A stretch of DNA of 64,000 nucleotides from sequence record PZ053912.1, one strand, 5' to 3'. A program made the position numbers and the translations under genes. The notes under the pieces are model-generated. The model was not told the DNA's origin and ran no database searches. It saw only the letters and a list, made by a program, of their open reading frames with translations. The stretch comes from a phage. Of the stretch, positions 33,805-45,166 are shown piece after piece. Numbering within the stretch: the stretch's first letter is position 1; each line of letters starts with the position of its first letter.

Positions 33805-34353
33805 TTAACGAGCCCATTTGATAATTTCTGTAATCAAATAATTACGTTCGCTTGCATTAAATCCTATAACTTTGTTAGCACCGTCATGATTAAGTAATTG
33901 ATACGTTTGGATTTTGTTATGAATTGCAAACTCTTCAAAATATGAAATGACTGTATTAAAACCGAATGAAGACAAAGTAATAAGATCGTCTTCAAAACTT
34001 TCAGTCATTTCGTTACGTGTTAAAATAATTGTGAACACATCATGGTTTTGGCAAAGACGAACATAATCCTGTTCATAAACGTCAAGAACCGAGTCCGCAT
34101 CTTGTCGAATACGTCCATAAACCCAGTTACTAATATATCCACGGTCTAACAGATAAATCTTAGTAGGGTCTAAATAATTCAACATCGTTTCGAAACAGCC
34201 AACTTCATTTCGAGACTTAACATCGAAACGTCCATCAACTGTTCGTTTAGGGAAATCAATCTTTACATATCTTTCACTAATTTCCATTATGTCATTAATG
34301 AAAGTTGTTTTACCAGCATTATCCGGGCCATCTACTAAAATAATTTTAGCCAT
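33805..34353 (-). CDS. P-loop nucleotide kinase, thymidylate-kinase-like
   Basis: 182 aa; Walker A GPDNAGKTT and LLDRGYISNWVYG (DRY-type NMP-binding motif); sits where T4 has b-gt. Confidence 0.5.
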   Translation of the reverse strand: MAKIILVDGPDNAGKTTFINDIMEISERYVKIDFPKRTVDGRFDVKSRNEVGCFETMLNYLDPTKIYLLDRGYISNWVYGRIRQDADSVLDVYEQDYVRLCQNHDVFTIILTRNEMTESFEDDLITLSSFGFNTVISYFEEFAIHNKIQTYQLLNHDGANKVIGFNASERNYLITEIIKWAR

Positions 34354-34354
34354 T

Positions 34355-35254
34355 TTATTCCTCGATTACGACATCTTCATATTTAGGTATATTATACGGC
34401 GAAGAAATTAAAGCGTTAAAGTAGATGAACTCGCCAAGACCTGGATGGAATACTTCTTCAGGATTTTCGAAATATTGAATCTTCGGCCGTCCTTTAAGAA
34501 TTTGATAGTACTCAGTTTTAGTTGGTTTAAAAATTCGAATCAGCGCTTCTTCAGGATACTTATTTCTGTCGAAGCTATTATTTGGATCGGTTATATAAAG
34601 CGGTTGGCCTAATTGAATTGCACATTCAACCACTTGTTCAAAACGATAGCACGGGTCACTAATTCGAAATGGATGAAAAATACCATCTAGATGAATAGGA
34701 GCCAAATCACCTACAAGACGCTGCATGATGGAAGGACGTATAACTTTCTGGGTTACGATAATCTTATTACCATCTGCACCTGCGTTAACCAGCACTTCTT
34801 TTTGACGTTCATTCAACACAGTAGTTTGAAGTGAACGATTAACCGACAACATATCAGTTTTTAAGAATTCGTCAATATAAAAACGTGGTTTATTAGGGTC
34901 TGCAGTGATATTGAAATTGAATTCCACATCAAAAGCGCCGTCATATCCGGTGATATCTGTGATTAGAAAATCACAATCATAATAAGCAATTAATGAATCA
35001 ACCACAAATTCATTTTCAGACCAGAAATATTTACGAGTGTTATACGCGTTATCTTTATACCATAATGGAACAAACTTAAATTCTGGAAAAAGACGTTCGC
35101 ATTCTTTAATATCAGATGCATTACGTGGATATGTAATCACATCACCCGGATTAGCACGGTGCAAATGAAGTTGGAAGTTGCCATCCTTAAGGATAGCATA
35201 CTGTCCAGTTTCATAAGACCGCATACTCAAGATAGGTACGCGGAAATTAGCCAT
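34355..35254 (-). CDS. hypothetical protein (299 aa) at T4 b-gt locus
   Basis: ORF track; no recognisable motif by eye. Confidence 0.5.
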   Translation of the reverse strand: MANFRVPILSMRSYETGQYAILKDGNFQLHLHRANPGDVITYPRNASDIKECERLFPEFKFVPLWYKDNAYNTRKYFWSENEFVVDSLIAYYDCDFLITDITGYDGAFDVEFNFNITADPNKPRFYIDEFLKTDMLSVNRSLQTTVLNERQKEVLVNAGADGNKIIVTQKVIRPSIMQRLVGDLAPIHLDGIFHPFRISDPCYRFEQVVECAIQLGQPLYITDPNNSFDRNKYPEEALIRIFKPTKTEYYQILKGRPKIQYFENPEEVFHPGLGEFIYFNALISSPYNIPKYEDVVIEE

Positions 35255-35970
35255 TAGTCAAGGAATCCTTTAACATAATCAAAATCACGTTCAAACACAT
35301 GGGCACTTACCATGGTATGAGTATAATCACCAACTTCTACACCACATTCGTTAGCGATATAATGAAGTAATTTTCCTTGGAGATAAAAATCCAACTGCAT
35401 AACAACAGCACAGTTCTGAGAACGCATATGACAGTGGGTATAAAGCTTACCATCACGAATATAATAAGTCACTGAGTCAGTACATGGATATTCAAGTGTT
35501 TCGTCCGAATCAAGCAAAGCCTGATCTGAACTTTCAAGAATTTGAAACACAACTCTTCGAGAGTTAGGTTTCTCTTTAAGTTCTTTGAGAAGAGCTGGTA
35601 ATTGGGCCGCAATGCGAGGACCATAGAAAGTGTTGAAGTTCGCCGGCAAAACATCTGATTTTGGTTTAGAAATAAATTTAGCGACATTAGGATATGCCTT
35701 AAACGCTTCTTCTGCGTTGGTACCACCAGAAATCATAAACTTCCAGAAGTCTTCGGCATATTCATAAGAGATGCGGTTAATACGTGGGTCGGTCATTTTG
35801 AATGATGATGGAGTGTCAACAACTACTGTCATAGACCCAATTTCATTACAACGTCCAATACGAGAATCAGTTACGAATTCCGGGTTTTCTAAAATTTCAC
35901 GATTGACTGCTTTAAATGCGGTTTGAAAATCTGCGGCTTTGATATATTTCATTGTGTTATGTTTTCCCAT
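35254..35970 (-). CDS. 42: dCMP hydroxymethylase gp42 (thymidylate synthase fold)
   Basis: 238 aa; GAGGT SD; CTDSVTYYIRDGKLYTHCHMRSQNCAVV resembles T4 gp42 catalytic region. Confidence 0.75.
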   Translation of the reverse strand: MGKHNTMKYIKAADFQTAFKAVNREILENPEFVTDSRIGRCNEIGSMTVVVDTPSSFKMTDPRINRISYEYAEDFWKFMISGGTNAEEAFKAYPNVAKFISKPKSDVLPANFNTFYGPRIAAQLPALLKELKEKPNSRRVVFQILESSDQALLDSDETLEYPCTDSVTYYIRDGKLYTHCHMRSQNCAVVMQLDFYLQGKLLHYIANECGVEVGDYTHTMVSAHVFERDFDYVKGFLD

Positions 35971-36153
35971 GTTTACCTCAATACAATTTATTATATACTC
36001 AATTCGTAAAGCTTATTTGAATTTCTTGACAATGTTGATATAACGTAAAGCTTCAGCATCGATACTTCCAAGAACACTATGAAGAAATGCATCAGCGTAG
36101 TATTCCAATTGAACAGGTTTCTTTAATCACTTTAGCCGCTTTAGTTTCAAACA

Positions 36154-36177
36154 GGCCCTTATGGGCCTGTTTAAGAA
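36154..36177 (-). terminator. perfect 10-bp stem hairpin (aaacaggccc / gggcctgttt) downstream of the sugar cassette
   Basis: Read from sequence; weak U-tract. Confidence 0.4.
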
Positions 36178-36249
36178 TTTGTTCGTTGCTGTTAATTTTC
36201 ATAGTCAAAATCTCTTCATTAAGTTGGTGGTTAAAAGTTTTTCTAGAAA

Positions 36250-37410
36250 TCATTCCGGGTACCTCAAAGCGTCATCAGAGTTAGTTATATCAATAATAGA
36301 TATAGAGTTTTCTGCTAACCCATTTTTAGATAACTGACGTTTATAATATCTTTCACAATATGTACACGTCGTCCCGCAGATTTCATTAGCACAATCGAAA
36401 TCTGGATGTCTGAACCACCTTTTTTCTAAAAAGCCGTCTAACAAAGAGGTTTCAATATTTACTGTATGTGAAAACTCAATTTCGTTTTCAAGAGTGAAAA
36501 TAGTCTCTAAAGGCTTCCACAGTTCTAACAAATTACCTTCAAACTTTTCAGAAGCGTATGCTTCAAGAACTTTCAAAATGTAGTCTGTGCTACCTGTACG
36601 TCCTGAAACTTTGAATTGAGTGATACCAATATCATTATAAAGTTTCAAATCTTGAGGACGAACAAAACGAGTTCTCAACCAGTTAAATGGGTCTGTATCA
36701 CGAGCTTTAATACAGTGCTGCATAGGATATCCGTTTAAGGATTTAGCATCATCAGCTGTAACATCAGTACTATGGAAAATATAGCAAGAGTCACGATAGC
36801 TACAATGTGTTGTATACCCTTTACCAGCATTAGAACAGAACTCATTTACAAGAACTTCAAATATTATATTGTTCTTATTGCAAAACTCTGCTGCACGCTT
36901 CAGGAAAGAAACTGAACGGTTCTTATGAATTCCACAGCAGACCTTTTTGATATTATATTGGTCATGCAAATATTTGATTTGAGTTACAGCATCGACATGT
37001 AGAATTGTTGAAACTTCAATCTCAATGTCTTTATTGACTTCACGAACAATTTCCATAACAACAGGGTTAGCGATAGTAATACGCCATACGCCTATTGACC
37101 AAAGATACTGAACATAATCCTGAATAGCTTTCTTCTTCCACTCAACTAGTTCTCTTTTTGAACCAGGATTTATCGTGTTGAGTGTATAGTTAAAGCAAAT
37201 ACCTAATTCGTTACAACGTTTAACGTAATCTTCTAACATCTTTTTGTCAACGTCAGGAAGCCTAAAATCAGGTCTGGCTGCTACAAAAGCCATTTCTCTT
37301 GTAGAGCCGTATACTTCATTTATCAAGCTATTAGGATAAGTTTTATTGAGCTCTACGATTTTATCAAGAAGAGCTAAATCAAAATTCGTTCCGATTTTAA
37401 AAGTATTCAT
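36250..37410 (-). CDS. Cys-rich putative metalloenzyme, possibly peptidase-U32-family-like (Fe-S?)
   Basis: 386 aa; IFEVLVNEFCSNAGKGYTTHCSYRDSC and C-terminal CANEICGTTCTYC (Cx4Cx3Cx2C) cluster; co-operonic with the sugar genes. Confidence 0.4.
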   Translation of the reverse strand: MNTFKIGTNFDLALLDKIVELNKTYPNSLINEVYGSTREMAFVAARPDFRLPDVDKKMLEDYVKRCNELGICFNYTLNTINPGSKRELVEWKKKAIQDYVQYLWSIGVWRITIANPVVMEIVREVNKDIEIEVSTILHVDAVTQIKYLHDQYNIKKVCCGIHKNRSVSFLKRAAEFCNKNNIIFEVLVNEFCSNAGKGYTTHCSYRDSCYIFHSTDVTADDAKSLNGYPMQHCIKARDTDPFNWLRTRFVRPQDLKLYNDIGITQFKVSGRTGSTDYILKVLEAYASEKFEGNLLELWKPLETIFTLENEIEFSHTVNIETSLLDGFLEKRWFRHPDFDCANEICGTTCTYCERYYKRQLSKNGLAENSISIIDITNSDDALRYPE

Positions 37411-37467
37411 TTTTTTACATCTCGCGTTAATTGATGCGATGGTTTTTTGCAGGTCTTACTTAAATTA

Positions 37468-37869
37468 TTATAGATTCGGTTTATATGATTTAAATGTTTC
37501 GAATTCGCCTTTATTCATAAGAGCTTTGAATTCGTCAGGACGCATAGCTTTGTCGTCGATAATCCAATCATATACTGGTTTATGTGTTAGCAAATTATGG
37601 TACTTCAAGCCAATGTTTGCCAAGTTCTGAATCAGACTTGGGAGAATGTCAATTGCTATACGACCAGGACCTACTGACTTCATACCACGAGCAGTGTAAA
37701 GCGTTATGGTATGCCCTGCATCATACAGGGCATTAATGGCAGACACCATTTCGACGTCTGGTTTGAAGTTCACGTAATCACGATTGTTATTCCACTCTGT
37801 TATACAATCATCGACATCAAAACAAAGATTAAGCATGTTTTCTACACGGTGCATTAGATTCGTTCCCAT
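37468..37869 (-). CDS. putative HAD-like phosphatase
   Basis: 133 aa; N-terminal FDVDDCIT resembles HAD motif I (DxDx[TV]); short for the family. Confidence 0.4.
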   Translation of the reverse strand: MGTNLMHRVENMLNLCFDVDDCITEWNNNRDYVNFKPDVEMVSAINALYDAGHTITLYTARGMKSVGPGRIAIDILPSLIQNLANIGLKYHNLLTHKPVYDWIIDDKAMRPDEFKALMNKGEFETFKSYKPNL

Positions 37870-39542
37870 TGATGAGTGATATCGCCACCGATTGGACGAT
37901 AGGAAACACCAGTTTCTTTATCAGTTAGTACCCATTTACCAGGATTTTTTGTAATCAGAGTAGCCGTTACAGGTTCTGCTACGTCATAACTAATAGAGCC
38001 GTCTTGAAGTACACGGCCCATGTTACGTAATTGCTTAGTCAGAAGTTCCATACCTTTATAATATGCGGCTACCGCTTTAAGTGGATTATTCTTGAAATAA
38101 CCACCTAATGCAATCCAGATAATTGCCACTGCCAAATGATGATACTCGTTAAACGAACTCATCTTTCCATATTTGTAAACTAATGGATTGATGTTAATAG
38201 TCACATTACAAGTTGTTTCATCAATAGTAAACTGTCCCCAGGTCGGATTAGCATTGAATTCATCATAACCTGAAACAGCATAAAGCACTTTAGCTTCATC
38301 GTACAATTTTGGCCCGTAAATCTTGGTTTCGCCAAAATATCCACGAGGGTCGATAAACTTGACTTCACCATTATCAGTAATCATAGTATTACTGAAGTTC
38401 GGGTCACCATGAATAACAGAGTACTGTCCCTGAGAACGGTTATGATAACGAATAAGGTGTTCTAAAGCTTGTTTCAACATTGGCTTCAGACGTCCAATCT
38501 TAGTGTAGTTCACATGTGTGATTTTACCGAATGAATCAATCAATGGTTGAATACTTTCACAACGATCAATAACTTTCGTATAGAACTCTTTAGTGAAATC
38601 ACGGCGAACAGTTTCAGGACTTACAAAATAAGTGTCTGTGCTGAATTTCAGTGCATCTAAAATTGCATCAACAATTTGTGGACGAGCAAGACTCGATTTG
38701 GATTTAATATATTCAAATGCCGGCTTACCTTTAATGCGTTCCATAATAAAGTGGCCGCCAGGATGATAACTTACAATCCGTGGAACTGAATCTGATTTAA
38801 CTTTCTTATACCAATTGACTTCATCTTTTTGAAGTGCAACGCCCTGTTCTGTTAAAGCAATCTTTGTTACCGTTTCTTCGCCAATTTCAACTGCATTAAA
38901 ACTACGATTAAGTTCACGAACTTCATGAGCTTTTTCAAGTTTAGGCATATCACCAAGGTCGATGATATTCATAAGCTCTGATTTATTGAATGCGCTGCCG
39001 TAAAGGAATTCTACGAAATCACGTCCTTTGCAGTATTCATGAATTTCCTCATCAGTAGAACCCATATAGAATTCCCAGTCTTTGAACTGATAAATTCCTA
39101 CAACATTACCACCTGTTGAACCTACATTAGTGATATTTTCACCGTCGAAATTATATCGACATTCGTCACCCTTAACATAGATTGCGTTAACATTCCAAGA
39201 CCACGAACCAAAATCAGGAATAATATCACACCAGTTAACAATTACATTATGGCCGTCTAAATCTTTGTGCAATTTAGCAAGAGCATAAGCAGAACCATAC
39301 GCTTCATCAACTGTACGAATAGTCACATTGAACCCTTCTTGCTCACAATAAGCTCGAACAGTTTCAGCAAATTTTGAATGAACTACTACAATAATTTCAT
39401 CTGCGCCAAGGTCAGAATAAATTGTATACAAATTGCTCAGAATAGTGTCTTGTTTATAGTTAACAAGCACCTTAGGAATATGATGCGTTATTGGATACAA
39501 ACGAGTTGCCAGTCCAGCACCAAGAATAACAGCTTTTTTCAT
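37854..39542 (-). CDS. bifunctional sugar-1-phosphate nucleotidyltransferase / sugar kinase
   Basis: 562 aa; N-terminal ILGAGLATRLYPIT (G-x-G-T-R-L NTP-transferase motif); C-terminal HGDPNFSN...FIDPRGYFG (APH/choline-kinase-like catalytic loop and DFG-like). Confidence 0.7.
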   Translation of the reverse strand: MKKAVILGAGLATRLYPITHHIPKVLVNYKQDTILSNLYTIYSDLGADEIIVVVHSKFAETVRAYCEQEGFNVTIRTVDEAYGSAYALAKLHKDLDGHNVIVNWCDIIPDFGSWSWNVNAIYVKGDECRYNFDGENITNVGSTGGNVVGIYQFKDWEFYMGSTDEEIHEYCKGRDFVEFLYGSAFNKSELMNIIDLGDMPKLEKAHEVRELNRSFNAVEIGEETVTKIALTEQGVALQKDEVNWYKKVKSDSVPRIVSYHPGGHFIMERIKGKPAFEYIKSKSSLARPQIVDAILDALKFSTDTYFVSPETVRRDFTKEFYTKVIDRCESIQPLIDSFGKITHVNYTKIGRLKPMLKQALEHLIRYHNRSQGQYSVIHGDPNFSNTMITDNGEVKFIDPRGYFGETKIYGPKLYDEAKVLYAVSGYDEFNANPTWGQFTIDETTCNVTININPLVYKYGKMSSFNEYHHLAVAIIWIALGGYFKNNPLKAVAAYYKGMELLTKQLRNMGRVLQDGSISYDVAEPVTATLITKNPGKWVLTDKETGVSYRPIGGDITHQWERI

Positions 39543-39583
39543 GTTGTGGTCCTCATTGGTAAGTAGGAGTATTGTACACTATT

Positions 39584-39727
39584 CTAGTTAAAGCATTCAT
39601 ACTTTGCTTGTAGTCCAATCATAATCCATCCAATTACAAGTGTTGGAATCATTACTGGAGCCGTTAAGCTCCAGTAGATAGTCATGACAAGCATCAATAG
39701 TAAAAGTCCTATTGTTATTGCTTTCAT
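39584..39727 (-). CDS. small hydrophobic membrane protein (47 aa)
   Basis: Manual translation MKAITIGLLLLMLVMTIYWSLTAPVMIPTLVIGWIMIGLQAKYECFN; ATGA overlap with SIS gene stop. Confidence 0.35.
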   Translation of the reverse strand: MKAITIGLLLLMLVMTIYWSLTAPVMIPTLVIGWIMIGLQAKYECFN

Positions 39728-40359
39728 TGTTCGCCTCGTAACATGGCACCTAGTGCACCGCCAGGGTGGAACTTAAGGAAGTCATTAGAGGTAAATCCAC
39801 GCTCAGACGAAAGGTTGATAGCAAACGTATCGATAAGCGCTAACAACAATGTAGTGGACATGGTCGGAGCCAGAGAATTCTCATCAACCTCTACTGCGAT
39901 GCCTGTACAGAAAGAGTAATCAAAAAGGGCTTCATTTTCTTGTGGAATGTCCGGGTTACAATGCAACAGAATCTGTTTGACGTTCGGACGAATCATTTTA
40001 AGATGCTTAGCCACGCCTATCATTTCTTCAGTTTTACCAGAACGACTAATATGAATCAACACATCATTAGGCGCAATGAATCCTGCATCACCGTGAGAAT
40101 AATGCCCAGTGTTCAAGTACATACTCGGGATACCGAGTGAAGCAAATGTCTCAGAAGCTTTAGTTGCAATATTAGCATTCTTACCAACACCTGTAATAAT
40201 TACTCGGCTTTCATAATTACTAAGTCCTGGGCGTCGAAGAGTTTCTAGAATAGCATTATAACGAGCAGGGTTTTGACTAATTACTTTGGCCATAGCGGCC
40301 AAAGAAGAAGCTTGTTTTATGATTGCGTCAATAGCGATAGTAATAGGAGTAGTTTTCAT
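39724..40359 (-). CDS. SIS-domain phosphosugar isomerase, KdsD/GutQ-like (putative arabinose-5-phosphate isomerase)
   Basis: 211 aa; VIITGVGKNANIA, HGDAG, SRSGKTEE, APTMSTT, FHPGGALG align with KdsD/GutQ SIS motifs; lacks CBS domains. Confidence 0.75.
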   Translation of the reverse strand: MKTTPITIAIDAIIKQASSLAAMAKVISQNPARYNAILETLRRPGLSNYESRVIITGVGKNANIATKASETFASLGIPSMYLNTGHYSHGDAGFIAPNDVLIHISRSGKTEEMIGVAKHLKMIRPNVKQILLHCNPDIPQENEALFDYSFCTGIAVEVDENSLAPTMSTTLLLALIDTFAINLSSERGFTSNDFLKFHPGGALGAMLRGEQ

Positions 40360-40399: not shown

Positions 40400-43111
40400 T
40401 CAAAAATCGAACATATCGAACAGAGATGCTTTCTTCTCGTAATCGAGTTTCGCTGCTGATGTGAATCCTTCAAGTGGTTTAATAAATGTCTTCTCAAGGA
40501 GAACAGTGTAGTCCATCCAATGAAGTACGTCGTCTTTAATTAAATCGGTGATTTCAGTACCAGAAGGCCATGCGATACATTTATCACCGAATGGGTTTCC
40601 TTCACGTAAAGGCAGAACATATACTTTTTCACCTTCTACAACTTGCGGTGCATCGATATTACCTTTGATAGCCCGGTTATACGTCAGAATTCCACGAATA
40701 TGGAACGGGCATTTGGGACCAGGGAATCCACCTACATCATATTTAGCAATGTTATTCGCAGAAGATACCGACGCGATGCTAATATAATTCAATTGACGGA
40801 ATTCTTTTTCAAACTCTTTAAAATATTCTTGTAATGATTCTTCACCTTCTTGAAGCATACGACGAATACATTCTTTAAGAGCTTTCTGTACTGCTTTAGG
40901 AGTCGAAGATTTCTGAGTCTCTAGACCCATGATTTTGAGTTTAGGCTCAGCGTAACGAGTACCTTCCATATCCCACACGTTTAATGCATAACGTTTCTTA
41001 CCAGTCCAGAATCCACCAATACCTTTAGAACCGAGTGGAGGCCCAGCGATAGCTTCTCGGTCCATGAACATTAAGTGTTGTTTATTGTTCATGTATTCAC
41101 ACATTTCACGGAAACCTCTATCAATAGCTGGTTCCATACGTTCACGAGCGAACTTATCTAAGAAGTCTACCCAATGGTTGGTATCACGGAATTTAGATTC
41201 ACCAACCTTATCGATAATTTTATCAGCAGATACGTAAATAGAGTCTGTATCACCATAAAGAACGAAAGCTTCACCTTCTGTACCACAAACTTCATTCAGA
41301 TATTCATTAACTTTACGTTCAATCCACTGTAAAGCCATTTGACCAAATGTTGTGATTGCAGTAGCATTACGCAAATCATAATAACGGAACCAAACGTTGC
41401 CAAGTGCACCATAAAGTGAGTTGATAAGCAATTTACGGTTAATTTGGGCAGTCATACCTGCAACTTCAGTACGTTGAGCTCTAAACAACATTTCATTAAG
41501 AGATTTAGCAGACAACTTTTTAATCTTTTCTTTAATCTCATCGCTGAAGTCGAAACGATAATCAACATCTAATGGTTCGTCAACAGAAAGATTAGGATTA
41601 TGCAATGCCTCTTTAATTATTTCGCCATTACGTTGAGCCGCAAGCATATAACCTTTATGTTCTTTACGTTGATTAAAGACCTTAGTGATTTCAGTTGGAA
41701 CTACACCATCACGGTCTTTATAATACATCATGCCGTTAGGAGAGCAACTGTACACATCGGAAGGACGTTCAGCGATTGCGTTAATATAATCATGTAGTGG
41801 AGCTACTTTAAACGTTCCTGCTATTGTTTCTGGGCTAATATTCACTTGGCGAATAATACTTGGATACAGAGATGTAAGGTCGAAACTCATTACATATTTG
41901 TATCGATTTGGAATAGGTTCCTTAACAAAAGCGCCGGGATAAGGTTGAACCGGGTGAGAACGACCTTGTGGAATCACCTTGTTCTGCTCTTTAAGGCTAT
42001 TAAAAATAATAGCATCCCATGTTTTAATTGGGCTAAACACAGATTGAATCTGTATCTTAGCATAATAACCCATGTCCAAACTCAAGTTGATGAACTGACG
42101 CTTAGCATCAATTTGCAATACACGATACACGTCGATAATGTTATAAGAAATATATCGTTGGTGATTGCTTTCACGAAGCTTAGAAATAGGGCCGTCATAT
42201 TTCAGTTTACCAACGTTCAATTCAAATTCTGAAATGTAATCCAGAGAATATGACGGTTGATTGGTAAAAGAGAATTTTTTGTAAAGGTCAATGTAATCAA
42301 GAACAGAGATACCGAACAATGTAATGATTTCACGAGAACCATACATGTTTTCGATAACTTTAACACGAGTTTTACGATGTGGTGATAAACGTTTCGCAGT
42401 AGATTCGCCAAAAATATTCTTGATTCGGTTATACACATATGGAATATCAAATGACTCAACGTTCCATCCAGTCAAAATGACAGGAGTTTTCTGTTGCCAG
42501 AAGTTGAGATATTCCATCAACAATTCTTTTTCGTTATCGAACGGCATATAAATGATTTTATCGATAATTTCTGATGGAACTTCATCACCACCTTGTTCTT
42601 GAAGCTTAGCCGCAATTTCGATAGACCATTCTTCTACATTACCATATGGAGAATTCAATAGATCAAATACGTAGAACCTGTCATCAATTGAGTCATAATG
42701 GGTGATAGCATCAATCGGATGTTTTGCTTGCGACGGCTCAGGGAACCCATCCGGAGATGTTACTTCGATGTCGAAGTTAGCCACACGAATTTTTGTATGG
42801 TCGTATTTGATTTCATAGTTATAAGTGTCAGACAAATACGCCAATTTGAAATCGTCCATGCCAAGTGCTTCAAGTCCGATATCTTCCATGCGTTTAATCC
42901 ATTGGGAGGCATCACGCATATTAGCGAACAACTTACGAGTGCACGGCTTACCGTAGATATCGAAATATTTCGTAGCCTGACTTTCTGGACAATGAGCAAA
43001 CAGTGATGGTTTATATTCTACTTCACGAGTACGTTCACGACCATTAGAATCGATGTAACGTTCAAAAATTGAATCACCAATCTGTTCAACCGTTAAGTAA
43101 AATTCTTTCAT
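40400..43111 (-). CDS. 43: DNA polymerase gp43 (family B)
   Basis: 903 aa; MKEFYLTVEQIGDSIFERYIDSNG.. with exonuclease (FDIE) and polymerase (YGDTDS) motifs; matches recollection of RB69 gp43. Confidence 0.95.
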   Translation of the reverse strand: MKEFYLTVEQIGDSIFERYIDSNGRERTREVEYKPSLFAHCPESQATKYFDIYGKPCTRKLFANMRDASQWIKRMEDIGLEALGMDDFKLAYLSDTYNYEIKYDHTKIRVANFDIEVTSPDGFPEPSQAKHPIDAITHYDSIDDRFYVFDLLNSPYGNVEEWSIEIAAKLQEQGGDEVPSEIIDKIIYMPFDNEKELLMEYLNFWQQKTPVILTGWNVESFDIPYVYNRIKNIFGESTAKRLSPHRKTRVKVIENMYGSREIITLFGISVLDYIDLYKKFSFTNQPSYSLDYISEFELNVGKLKYDGPISKLRESNHQRYISYNIIDVYRVLQIDAKRQFINLSLDMGYYAKIQIQSVFSPIKTWDAIIFNSLKEQNKVIPQGRSHPVQPYPGAFVKEPIPNRYKYVMSFDLTSLYPSIIRQVNISPETIAGTFKVAPLHDYINAIAERPSDVYSCSPNGMMYYKDRDGVVPTEITKVFNQRKEHKGYMLAAQRNGEIIKEALHNPNLSVDEPLDVDYRFDFSDEIKEKIKKLSAKSLNEMLFRAQRTEVAGMTAQINRKLLINSLYGALGNVWFRYYDLRNATAITTFGQMALQWIERKVNEYLNEVCGTEGEAFVLYGDTDSIYVSADKIIDKVGESKFRDTNHWVDFLDKFARERMEPAIDRGFREMCEYMNNKQHLMFMDREAIAGPPLGSKGIGGFWTGKKRYALNVWDMEGTRYAEPKLKIMGLETQKSSTPKAVQKALKECIRRMLQEGEESLQEYFKEFEKEFRQLNYISIASVSSANNIAKYDVGGFPGPKCPFHIRGILTYNRAIKGNIDAPQVVEGEKVYVLPLREGNPFGDKCIAWPSGTEITDLIKDDVLHWMDYTVLLEKTFIKPLEGFTSAAKLDYEKKASLFDMFDF

Positions 43112-45091: not shown

Positions 45092-45166
45092 GTAATTTTC
45101 CTCATTATCATTAAACTGGAGGATTTCTCCTCCATAATCGTATCACAATAAACGTAAAGCTTTGAC

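Follow-up and report, generated by a model that had tools for sequence, protein, structure and literature searches.

An RB69-type arabinose-activation cassette in a Mosigvirus and a U32-family gene that is most likely a separable accessory module

What do the genes between DNA polymerase gene 43 and the gene 42 homolog of an RB69-like phage contribute to the modification of its DNA, and do all of them belong to one route? The question arises from a stretch of phage DNA of 64,000 nucleotides (sequence record PZ053912.1, here called the window), in which positions 36,250 to 40,359 carry four large genes on the minus strand. An initial annotation had read all four as a single route to a nucleoside diphosphate (NDP)-arabinose, comprising an isomerase, a phosphatase, an anomeric kinase, a nucleotidyltransferase and a Cys-rich enzyme taking a sugar step, with transfer of the arabinose to 5-hydroxymethylcytosine (hmC). 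We arrive at a different division of the locus. The interval is very probably the sugar-activation half of the known arabinosyl-5-hydroxycytosine hypermodification cluster of the RB69/HY126 type, and its fourth gene, which encodes a U32-family protein, is most likely an accessory module, separable from the sugar pathway, and not a sugar enzyme. The explanation as a whole, a core pathway with U32 as an accessory to it, is one that we hold with good confidence, and no observation made on the sequence contradicts the core pathway. The genes on which the argument turns are the following.

39724..40359, minus strand: SIS-domain D-arabinose-5-phosphate isomerase of the KpsF/GutQ/KdsD type, without CBS domains, 211 amino acids; ortholog of RB69 gp55
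37854..39542, minus strand: AfhE ortholog, bifunctional nucleotidyltransferase and kinase, 562 amino acids in a single open reading frame (ORF)
37468..37854, minus strand: AfhF ortholog, small HAD-family phosphatase, 128 amino acids; the ORF extends to 37869, and the orthologs start at 37854
36250..37410, minus strand: U32-family protein, 386 amino acids, Pfam Peptidase_U32; ortholog of RB69 gp50
35254..35970, minus strand: ThyA-superfamily 5-hydroxy-dCMP synthase, flavin- and O2-dependent, at the position of T4 gene 42; 99.2% identical to RB69 gp48
34355..35254, minus strand: putative first (base-proximal) DNA arabinosyltransferase, 299 amino acids, ortholog of RB69 gp46:47; phrog_3891, 4e-156
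33805..34353, minus strand: thymidylate-kinase-like nucleotide kinase, ortholog of RB69 gp45; phrog_761, 6e-45

The four large, co-oriented ORFs between gp43 and the ThyA-family gene were found exactly where the initial annotation had placed them behind gene 43, and every motif that it quoted (GVGK, HGD, SRSGKTEE, FHPGGALG, GAGLATRL, HGDPNFSN..FIDPRG and FDVDD) is present in their translations. The 4.5-kb region matches 194 phage records, with HY126 best at 98.3%, followed by other Mosigviruses, and RB69 at 97.2%; judged by these matches, the window is that of a Mosigvirus. The cassette proteins are 98-100% identical to their HY126 and RB69 orthologs, which bears out the connection to RB69 that had been proposed. 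Gene order and content equal those of HY126 (the Afh genes; He et al. 2026) and of RB69 gp45-gp55 without substantive difference, the ORF049c-family gene being frameshifted in the window, and related clusters are DLP3 gp76-83 (Lee et al. 2026, PMC13326640) and those of Bas46/47, LC53 and 92A1 (Mahler et al. 2025). The AfhE and base-proximal glycosyltransferase genes are intact single ORFs in the window. In the RB69 reference, NC_004928, sequencing errors split the same two genes into ORF052/053 and ORF046/047, and the RefSeq names of the RB69 genes are misleading: the "phosphoheptose isomerase" is the HAD phosphatase, the "peptidase" is U32 and the "thymidylate kinase" is gp45.

Profile searches place the first three proteins in the families to which they had been assigned from their motifs. 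The SIS protein matches Pfam SIS (1e-10) and the NCBIfam models kpsF (2e-32) and KdsD (7e-31), as well as the arabinose-5-phosphate isomerases of known structure 3ETN (3e-25), 2XHZ (4e-19) and 5UQI in the PDB; it is 100% identical to RB69 gp55 and 99.1% identical to the HY126 ortholog. It has the catalytic SIS domain in common with the KdsD, GutQ and KpsF isomerases of 3-deoxy-D-manno-octulosonate (Kdo) and capsule biosynthesis, but consists of that domain alone (211 amino acids) and falls below the full-length equivalog cut-offs, and its product would be diverted to a nucleotide sugar rather than to Kdo-8-phosphate. The N-terminus of the 562-residue fusion matches Pfam NTP_transferase (1e-9), an NCBIfam sugar-1-phosphate nucleotidylyltransferase model (7e-14) and PDB 1JYK (2e-5), and its C-terminus gives weak APH, Fructosamin_kin and choline-kinase-type matches around an HGD...D motif; the whole protein is 99.6% identical to that of HY126 and 100% identical to that of PNJ-9. 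The HAD-like protein, with its DxD motif FDVDD, matches the NCBIfam capsule biosynthesis phosphatase model TIGR01689 (4e-13), is 100% identical to the HY126 protein and has a near-identical crystal structure in PDB 9IQW (2e-87).

In the pathway that these enzymes would form, the SIS enzyme would convert host ribulose-5-phosphate to D-arabinose-5-phosphate, the C-terminal kinase of AfhE would phosphorylate this at C1 to give arabinose-1,5-bisphosphate, AfhF would remove the 5-phosphate, and the N-terminal nucleotidyltransferase of AfhE would turn the resulting arabinose-1-phosphate into uridine diphosphate (UDP)-arabinofuranose. These steps have been reported for orthologs that are 99-100% identical, and those from arabinose-5-phosphate onward are described for the HY126 enzymes in what PMC13326640 relays of He et al. 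2026: the C-terminal kinase of AfhE acts on arabinose-5-phosphate at C1, AfhF is a Mg2+-dependent phosphatase that takes arabinose-1,5-bisphosphate to arabinose-1-phosphate, and the N-terminal domain of AfhE makes UDP-arabinofuranose. Thomas et al. 2018 had proposed ORF055c and ORF53_52c for UDP-arabinose synthesis. The ThyA homolog, directly downstream, would then supply 5-hydroxy-dCMP with the help of flavin and O2, and once in DNA the 5-hydroxyl would receive one arabinose or two from glycosyltransferases, a modification that would block restriction enzymes and some CRISPR systems. The overall logic of the initial annotation, from ribulose-5-phosphate through arabinose-5-phosphate and NDP-arabinose to DNA glycosylation, fits both the families and the published pathway. 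Its placing of the phosphatase before the kinase does not, the HY126 biochemistry (via PMC13326640) having the kinase first. Nor is the enzymology of the cassette still to be established, as had been thought; it is already known, published in 2025-2026 (He et al. 2026; Mahler et al. 2025), because the enzymes of the orthologs have been described in print and near-identical structures deposited (PDB 9IQC/9IR2/9IQU and 9IQW).

The acceptor base separates this locus from that of T4. The two share the neighbourhood uvsX ... 42 ... 43 and a similar logic, in which a ThyA-superfamily enzyme modifies dCMP before replication and glycosyltransferases decorate the DNA later. In T4, however, the interval between genes 42 and 43 holds imm and imm.1, as the initial annotation had said and a comparison with the T4 genome bears out, and beta-gt adjoins gene 42. 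The T4 system (gp42 dCMP hydroxymethylase with alpha- and beta-glucosyltransferases) draws on host UDP-glucose, whereas this phage must make its own UDP-arabinofuranose, and the T4 base is hmC, whereas that of the window phage would be 5-hydroxycytosine, made by a synthase with D169N. Alignment of the ThyA homolog with ThyA and T4 gp42 gives Glu143, Asn169 and Asp177 (L143E, D169N and N177D in E. coli ThyA numbering), and T4 gp42 keeps Asp at position 169. The protein is near-identical to PDB 9IQC/9IR2 (8e-161) and also matches 9IQU. Its ortholog RB69 gp48 was found by experiment to make 5-hydroxy-dCMP with flavin and O2 (Lee et al. 2026, PMC13326640), and the DNA of RB69 and DLP3 contains mono- and poly-arabinosylated 5-hydroxycytosine in which the sugar is ether-linked straight to C5 (PMC13326640); PMC13390438 also gives 5-hydroxycytosine as the acceptor. 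These two papers report virion DNA with mono- or di-arabinosyl-5-hydroxycytosine for RB69, NP and HY126.

These results bear directly on the view that all four genes form one NDP-arabinose route ending on hmC. The protein families fit it, arabinosyl-hmC was what Thomas et al. 2018 reported, and Table 1 of PMC13326640 keeps the older order of steps, in which one enzyme "dephosphorylates Araf5P to Ara" and another "phosphorylates Ara to Araf1P", an entry that speaks against the order we adopt. The acceptor part of the view, on the other hand, has already been refuted by nuclear magnetic resonance, mass spectrometry and 18O2 labelling, which identify the base as 5-hydroxycytosine (PMC13326640, PMC13390438), and the D169N replacement in the window protein agrees with this. 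The HY126 biochemistry, so far as it is relayed, runs from kinase to phosphatase, and phages without U32 still make arabinosyl-5-hydroxycytosine. We consider the single route to hmC very improbable, and the cassette is better read as the sugar-activation half of the 5-hydroxycytosine system.

If the first three genes suffice for the sugar, what is the fourth protein? It had been described as a Cys-rich member of the sugar route, but it matches Pfam Peptidase_U32 (PF01136) at 7e-11. By hhalign it aligns with E. coli UbiU, UbiV, RlhA and TrhP at 96% probability (E = 3e-9), and an AlphaFold2 model (predicted local distance difference test score 91.3) has a TIM-barrel fold whose best Foldseek match (4e-8) is 5D88, the sole solved U32 structure. 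Pairwise BLAST against the E. coli paralogs UbiU and RlhA was not significant, and a sequence search of the PDB returned no match; the relationship shows up with profile and fold comparisons only. Ten cysteines are invariant among 41 homologs that are 48-85% identical, and three of these, C203, C209 and C233, align by hhalign with C169, C176 and C232 of UbiU, in which the C176A mutation abolishes iron-sulphur (Fe-S) binding (PMC10990095). Besides the cysteines of the U32 core, the protein has an invariant C-terminal CX4CX3CX2C motif (C340, C345, C349 and C352; residues 340-352), a candidate for a further metal or Fe-S site. Identity to the window protein remains 79-87% in phages of Pectobacterium, Yersinia, Enterobacter, Proteus and Shewanella, where gp43 is 69%, UvsX 68-88%, AfhE 42-71% and the glycosyltransferase 48-68% identical; by this measure no other gene of the cluster is as well conserved as U32.

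The characterized relatives share an unusual chemistry. RlhA is needed for 5-hydroxycytidine in 23S rRNA (ho5C2501), TrhP for ho5U34 in tRNA and UbiU/V for anaerobic quinone hydroxylation; all require prephenate and Fe-S clusters and work without O2, and TrhP coexists with the O2-dependent TrhO, which gives the same product. The phage protein has in common with TrhP, RlhA and UbiU/UbiV the U32 domain, the TIM-barrel fold and the aligned candidate Fe-S cysteines. C5 hydroxylation of a pyrimidine, for which TrhP and RlhA are required, is the reaction that the phage needs, and the pairs TrhP-TrhO and UbiU/V-UbiI/H/F resemble the phage arrangement of U32 beside an O2- and flavin-dependent ThyA-type enzyme. 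In contrast to these hydroxylases, the phage clade is very divergent, with a rearranged Cys motif and the extra CX4CX3CX2C; it is without the C-terminal domains of RlhA and TrhP, and in place of RNA or a quinone it would act on a deoxynucleotide or on DNA. From gene neighbourhood and family chemistry, we propose tentatively, as a reading that is plausible though short of probable, that the phage clade is an Fe-S, prephenate-dependent and O2-independent C5 hydroxylase making the 5-hydroxypyrimidine acceptor for DNA glycosylation. Its candidate substrates are deoxynucleotides of cytosine or uracil, or else the DNA. In RB69-like phages, U32 would serve as the anaerobic counterpart of the 5-hydroxy-dCMP synthase that depends on flavin and O2; in many uncultured phages, where it is paired with DNA glycosyltransferases, Tmk-like kinases and chorismate mutase or 3-deoxy-D-arabino-heptulosonate-7-phosphate (DAHP) synthase with no ThyA homolog nearby, it would replace that enzyme as the only maker of the hydroxyl acceptor.

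The distribution of U32 among phages is that of a module apart from the sugar genes. It occurs in 222 phage records, none evidently of Acinetobacter, and AfhE occurs in 374, of which 57 are of Acinetobacter. In JS98 (a Dhakavirus of E. coli) and Acinetobacter phage DLP1, U32 is missing and the HAD gene directly adjoins the gene for the kinase or the ThyA homolog that follows it; the tri-arabinosylating DLP3 cluster is also without U32 (PMC13326640). This suggests that U32 is a separable module, dispensable for arabinosylation in other phages, and so not the sugar-route member that it had been taken for. A strict rule by which U32 would be confined to phages of facultative anaerobes was rejected, as the E. 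coli Dhakaviruses lack it too.

A gene for prephenate supply is a recurrent neighbour of U32. Directly downstream of U32, or one gene further on, Kanagawavirus, Mosugukvirus, Tegunavirus, Bragavirus and Shewanella phage Thanatos, all arabinosylating Straboviridae, encode an AroQ chorismate mutase, and across these five genera the adjacent chorismate mutase scores 33-47 bits against Pfam, where the gathering score is 27. The positions are L010:7158-7397, L011:8134-8391, L012:7325-7567, L013:7378-7671 and L014:7399-7785. In Thanatos, U32 and chorismate mutase have moved as a unit to another place in the cluster, and in all 51 phage records that contain this mutase it is flanked by the U32 "peptidase", the ThyA homolog or both. 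The paper on Thanatos includes a model of the U32 homolog but makes no remark on it.

U32 homologs of 37-58% identity are found in many uncultured phages, and a distant set of 30 dereplicated loci (29 viral and 1 bacterial) was examined over ±10 kb around the gene. Chorismate mutase, DAHP synthase or both lie at most two genes from U32 in 8 of the 30. A base-proximal glycosyltransferase homolog stands directly upstream, often overlapping U32, likewise in 8, and a TET-associated glycosyltransferase (TAGT) directly downstream in 2, one of them Pfam-confirmed at 34 bits, above the gathering score. A ThyA-family gene was present in a single locus, where it looks like a canonical thymidylate synthase (244 bits). 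When three ORFs on each side of U32 were tallied over 23 dereplicated loci, the commonest families were Thymidylate_kin (7), DAHP_synth_1 (5), CM_2 (4), NTP_transferase (4) and SIS (4), and elsewhere around the distant genes there are dCMP deaminase, dUTPase/DCD, MazG-like, uracil-DNA glycosylase and DNA polymerase III alpha genes. The shikimate-pathway neighbours are true DAHP synthases, several of them fused to chorismate mutase. That the DAHP_synth_1 neighbour might be a Kdo-8-phosphate synthase acting on arabinose-5-phosphate was considered and rejected, since it scores 237 bits as DAHP synthase against 63 as KDO8P synthase and is often fused to chorismate mutase. Homologs of DAHP synthase or of its fusion with chorismate mutase occur in 11 of 50,697 phage records, mostly as short unannotated fragments, and because they are so rare their association with U32 lies far above background.

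In two uncultured phages (L017:5028-12179 and L045:9010-11979), U32 sits between an RB69-type base-proximal glycosyltransferase homolog and a TAGT; the first also has dUTPase/DCD and UDP-galactopyranose mutase, a combination like that of Rhizobium phage RL38J1, which glycosylates 5-hydroxycytosine. A bacterial metagenome contig of 86 kb (L007:10001-17428) carries two U32 paralogs together with an NT5C 5'-nucleotidase, a PnuC-like transporter, a deoxynucleoside kinase, a radical SAM/SPASM protein and a nucleoside 2-deoxyribosyltransferase-like gene, and may be a cellular deoxynucleoside-modifying cluster.

Several observations weigh against the proposal that U32 is a prephenate-dependent hydroxylase of the acceptor pyrimidine. 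The phage clade has lost the residue equivalent to UbiU C193 through a deletion and would thus have a rearranged cluster site, for which the invariant C192, C158 and C177 are candidate stand-ins, and hydroxylase activity has not been reconstituted in vitro for any U32 protein. Searches found no chorismate mutase in the window or in Mosigviruses, which have lost the gene or never had it and would rely on host PheA and TyrA. Arabinosylating Dhakaviruses and Acinetobacter phages do without U32, and the oxygen lifestyle of the host explains the distribution only partly. In the distant contigs, ThyA homologs might sit beyond the ±10 kb that were covered, and AfhE-like genes are near U32 in 13 of the 30 loci and SIS-like genes in 10.

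The last of these counts would equally suit a protein that acts on a sugar or a cofactor, either as the "sugar or heterocycle reductase" that Table 1 of PMC13326640 makes of RB69 gp50 or as an Fe-S partner giving the ThyA-type hydroxylase the reduced flavin that it needs (PMC13326640), and the place of the U32 gene between the HAD and ThyA-homolog genes suits it as well. Yet clusters of the DLP3, DLP1 and JS98 types mono-, di- or tri-arabinosylate without U32, the distant loci have U32 without AfhE nearby in 17 of 30 and without a ThyA homolog in 29 of 30, and the recurrent chorismate mutase and DAHP synthase neighbours would be left unexplained; no U32 member has been reported as a sugar or flavin reductase. 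We therefore think a role on sugar or cofactor unlikely. U32 might instead be an RNA hydroxylase like TrhP or RlhA, forming ho5U34 in phage or host tRNAs or ho5C in rRNA, with the phage chorismate mutase feeding prephenate to U32 and CmoA and the link to DNA a coincidence. The characterized U32 enzymes of nucleic acids do act only on RNA and do need prephenate, and T-even-type phages encode tRNAs. Coincidence sits poorly, however, with the place of U32 inside the DNA-modification cluster in every Straboviridae genus examined, with the overlap of its start and stop codons with those of DNA glycosyltransferase homologs in distant viruses, and with its company there of dUTPase, dCMP deaminase, Tmk-like kinase and DNA polymerase genes, and the phage proteins are without the C-terminal extensions of RlhA and TrhP; an RNA substrate seems to us rather improbable.

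That U32 is a genuine peptidase, or a non-functional hitchhiker, is the least credible of the readings and highly improbable. Database entries do call it "peptidase" or "collagenase-like protease", but the name of the family is historical, its characterized members being Fe-S hydroxylation factors, and neither a peptidase nor a hitchhiker is what one would expect from ten invariant cysteines and an identity across genera above that of DNA polymerase. The hydroxylase proposal is the reading that we prefer, and a literature search, outside whose reach lay He et al. 2026 and Mahler et al. 2025, found nothing that connects phage DNA modification with U32, chorismate mutase or prephenate; in the literature so covered, RB69 gp50 has its label in Table 1 of PMC13326640 and no further discussion.

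Around these genes, the window has further elements that bear on how the cassette is bounded and expressed.

40400-43111, minus strand: DNA polymerase gp43
39584..39727, minus strand: ORF of 47 amino acids, RB69 ORF054c family, predicted two-helix membrane protein; phrog_3610, 7e-27
39571..39594, minus strand: T4 middle-promoter-like motif, GCTTTA, 12 nt, TACAAT, 29 nt upstream of the AfhE-like start codon; consensus match
36013..36253, minus strand: intact extent of the RB69 ORF049c-family small ORF, present as a frameshifted form of 53 amino acids at 36092-36253; phrog_8601, 1e-27
36147..36174, minus strand: GC-rich RNA hairpin with a 12-bp stem and an AUAA loop, inside the ORF049c-family ORF
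35990..36012, minus strand: T4 middle-promoter-like motif, GCTTTA, 11 nt, TATAAT, upstream of the ThyA-homolog gene; pattern search

The initial annotation was right about the four large genes but overlooked the two small conserved ORFs (39584-39727 and 36092-36253). The start of the first overlaps the stop codon of the SIS gene at the position of T4 imm, and profile searches gave it no Pfam or NCBIfam match. It was rejected as a relative of Imm, having no detectable similarity to the T4 protein; JS98 carries both imm and a homolog of the 47-residue ORF. The second, which overlaps the U32 stop codon, has an extra A (aaagaaacc against aaagaacc in a DNA alignment with RB69 and HY126) that shifts the frame and leaves 53 rather than 79 amino acids, and its HY126 homolog has another indel and is annotated at 40 amino acids. 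In 155 of 163 phage records with a match, one tblastn piece spans 80% or more of the RB69 protein, and the gene thus appears intact in most relatives; the frameshift in the window reflects a sequencing error or else a recent loss of function. In PM2 and TG1, homologs of this ORF sit between U32 and chorismate mutase. The idea that the family is itself a diverged chorismate mutase was discarded, as it has no CM_2 match and coexists with the true enzyme in these two phages.

The strong hairpin at which the cassette had been said to end (36154-36177) is real, at 36147-36174, with a folding energy of -22.3 kcal/mol in an 81-nt context (z = -4.3; 0 of 200 shuffles equally stable), but it lies within an ORF, has no U-run and was not listed by a terminator scan, and an operon-closing intrinsic terminator was rejected on these grounds. 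Nor is the supposed absence of intervening promoters supported, since the middle-promoter-like consensus match at 39594-39571 is directly upstream of the fusion gene. Over the whole window, consensus matches to such motifs (GCTTNA, 11-13 nt, TANNNT) are about threefold enriched: 33 occur where 10.8 ± 3.7 would be expected, a count that 0 of 100 shuffles reached, and they often stand just upstream of minus-strand gene starts (for example at 39571-39594, 35990-36012, 34391-34414 and 45137-45160). In promoter scans, sigma-70-like sites were at chance level and no late-promoter boxes were present in the region. Downstream of the ThyA homolog, the base-proximal glycosyltransferase is 99.0% identical to its HY126 ortholog and the Tmk-like kinase 98.4% identical to RB69 gp45; the assignment of the first as a GT-B arabinosyltransferase (RB69 gp46:47) and of the second as thymidylate-kinase-like follows Table 1 of PMC13326640.

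The cassette explains how RB69-type phages come by a sugar nucleotide that their hosts lack, and with it a shield for their DNA against restriction enzymes and CRISPR. The lead that remains is U32, with the chorismate mutase and DAHP synthase genes that accompany it. The sole described route to 5-hydroxycytosine needs O2, yet the hosts of these phages are gut and sediment bacteria, for which growth in its absence is common. If the proposal for U32 is true, the family would extend from RNA and quinones to DNA precursors, U32 with chorismate mutase would make a compact two-gene system in which to reconstitute U32 chemistry, and a wide set of uncultured phages would be flagged as likely carriers of glycosylated 5-hydroxypyrimidines.

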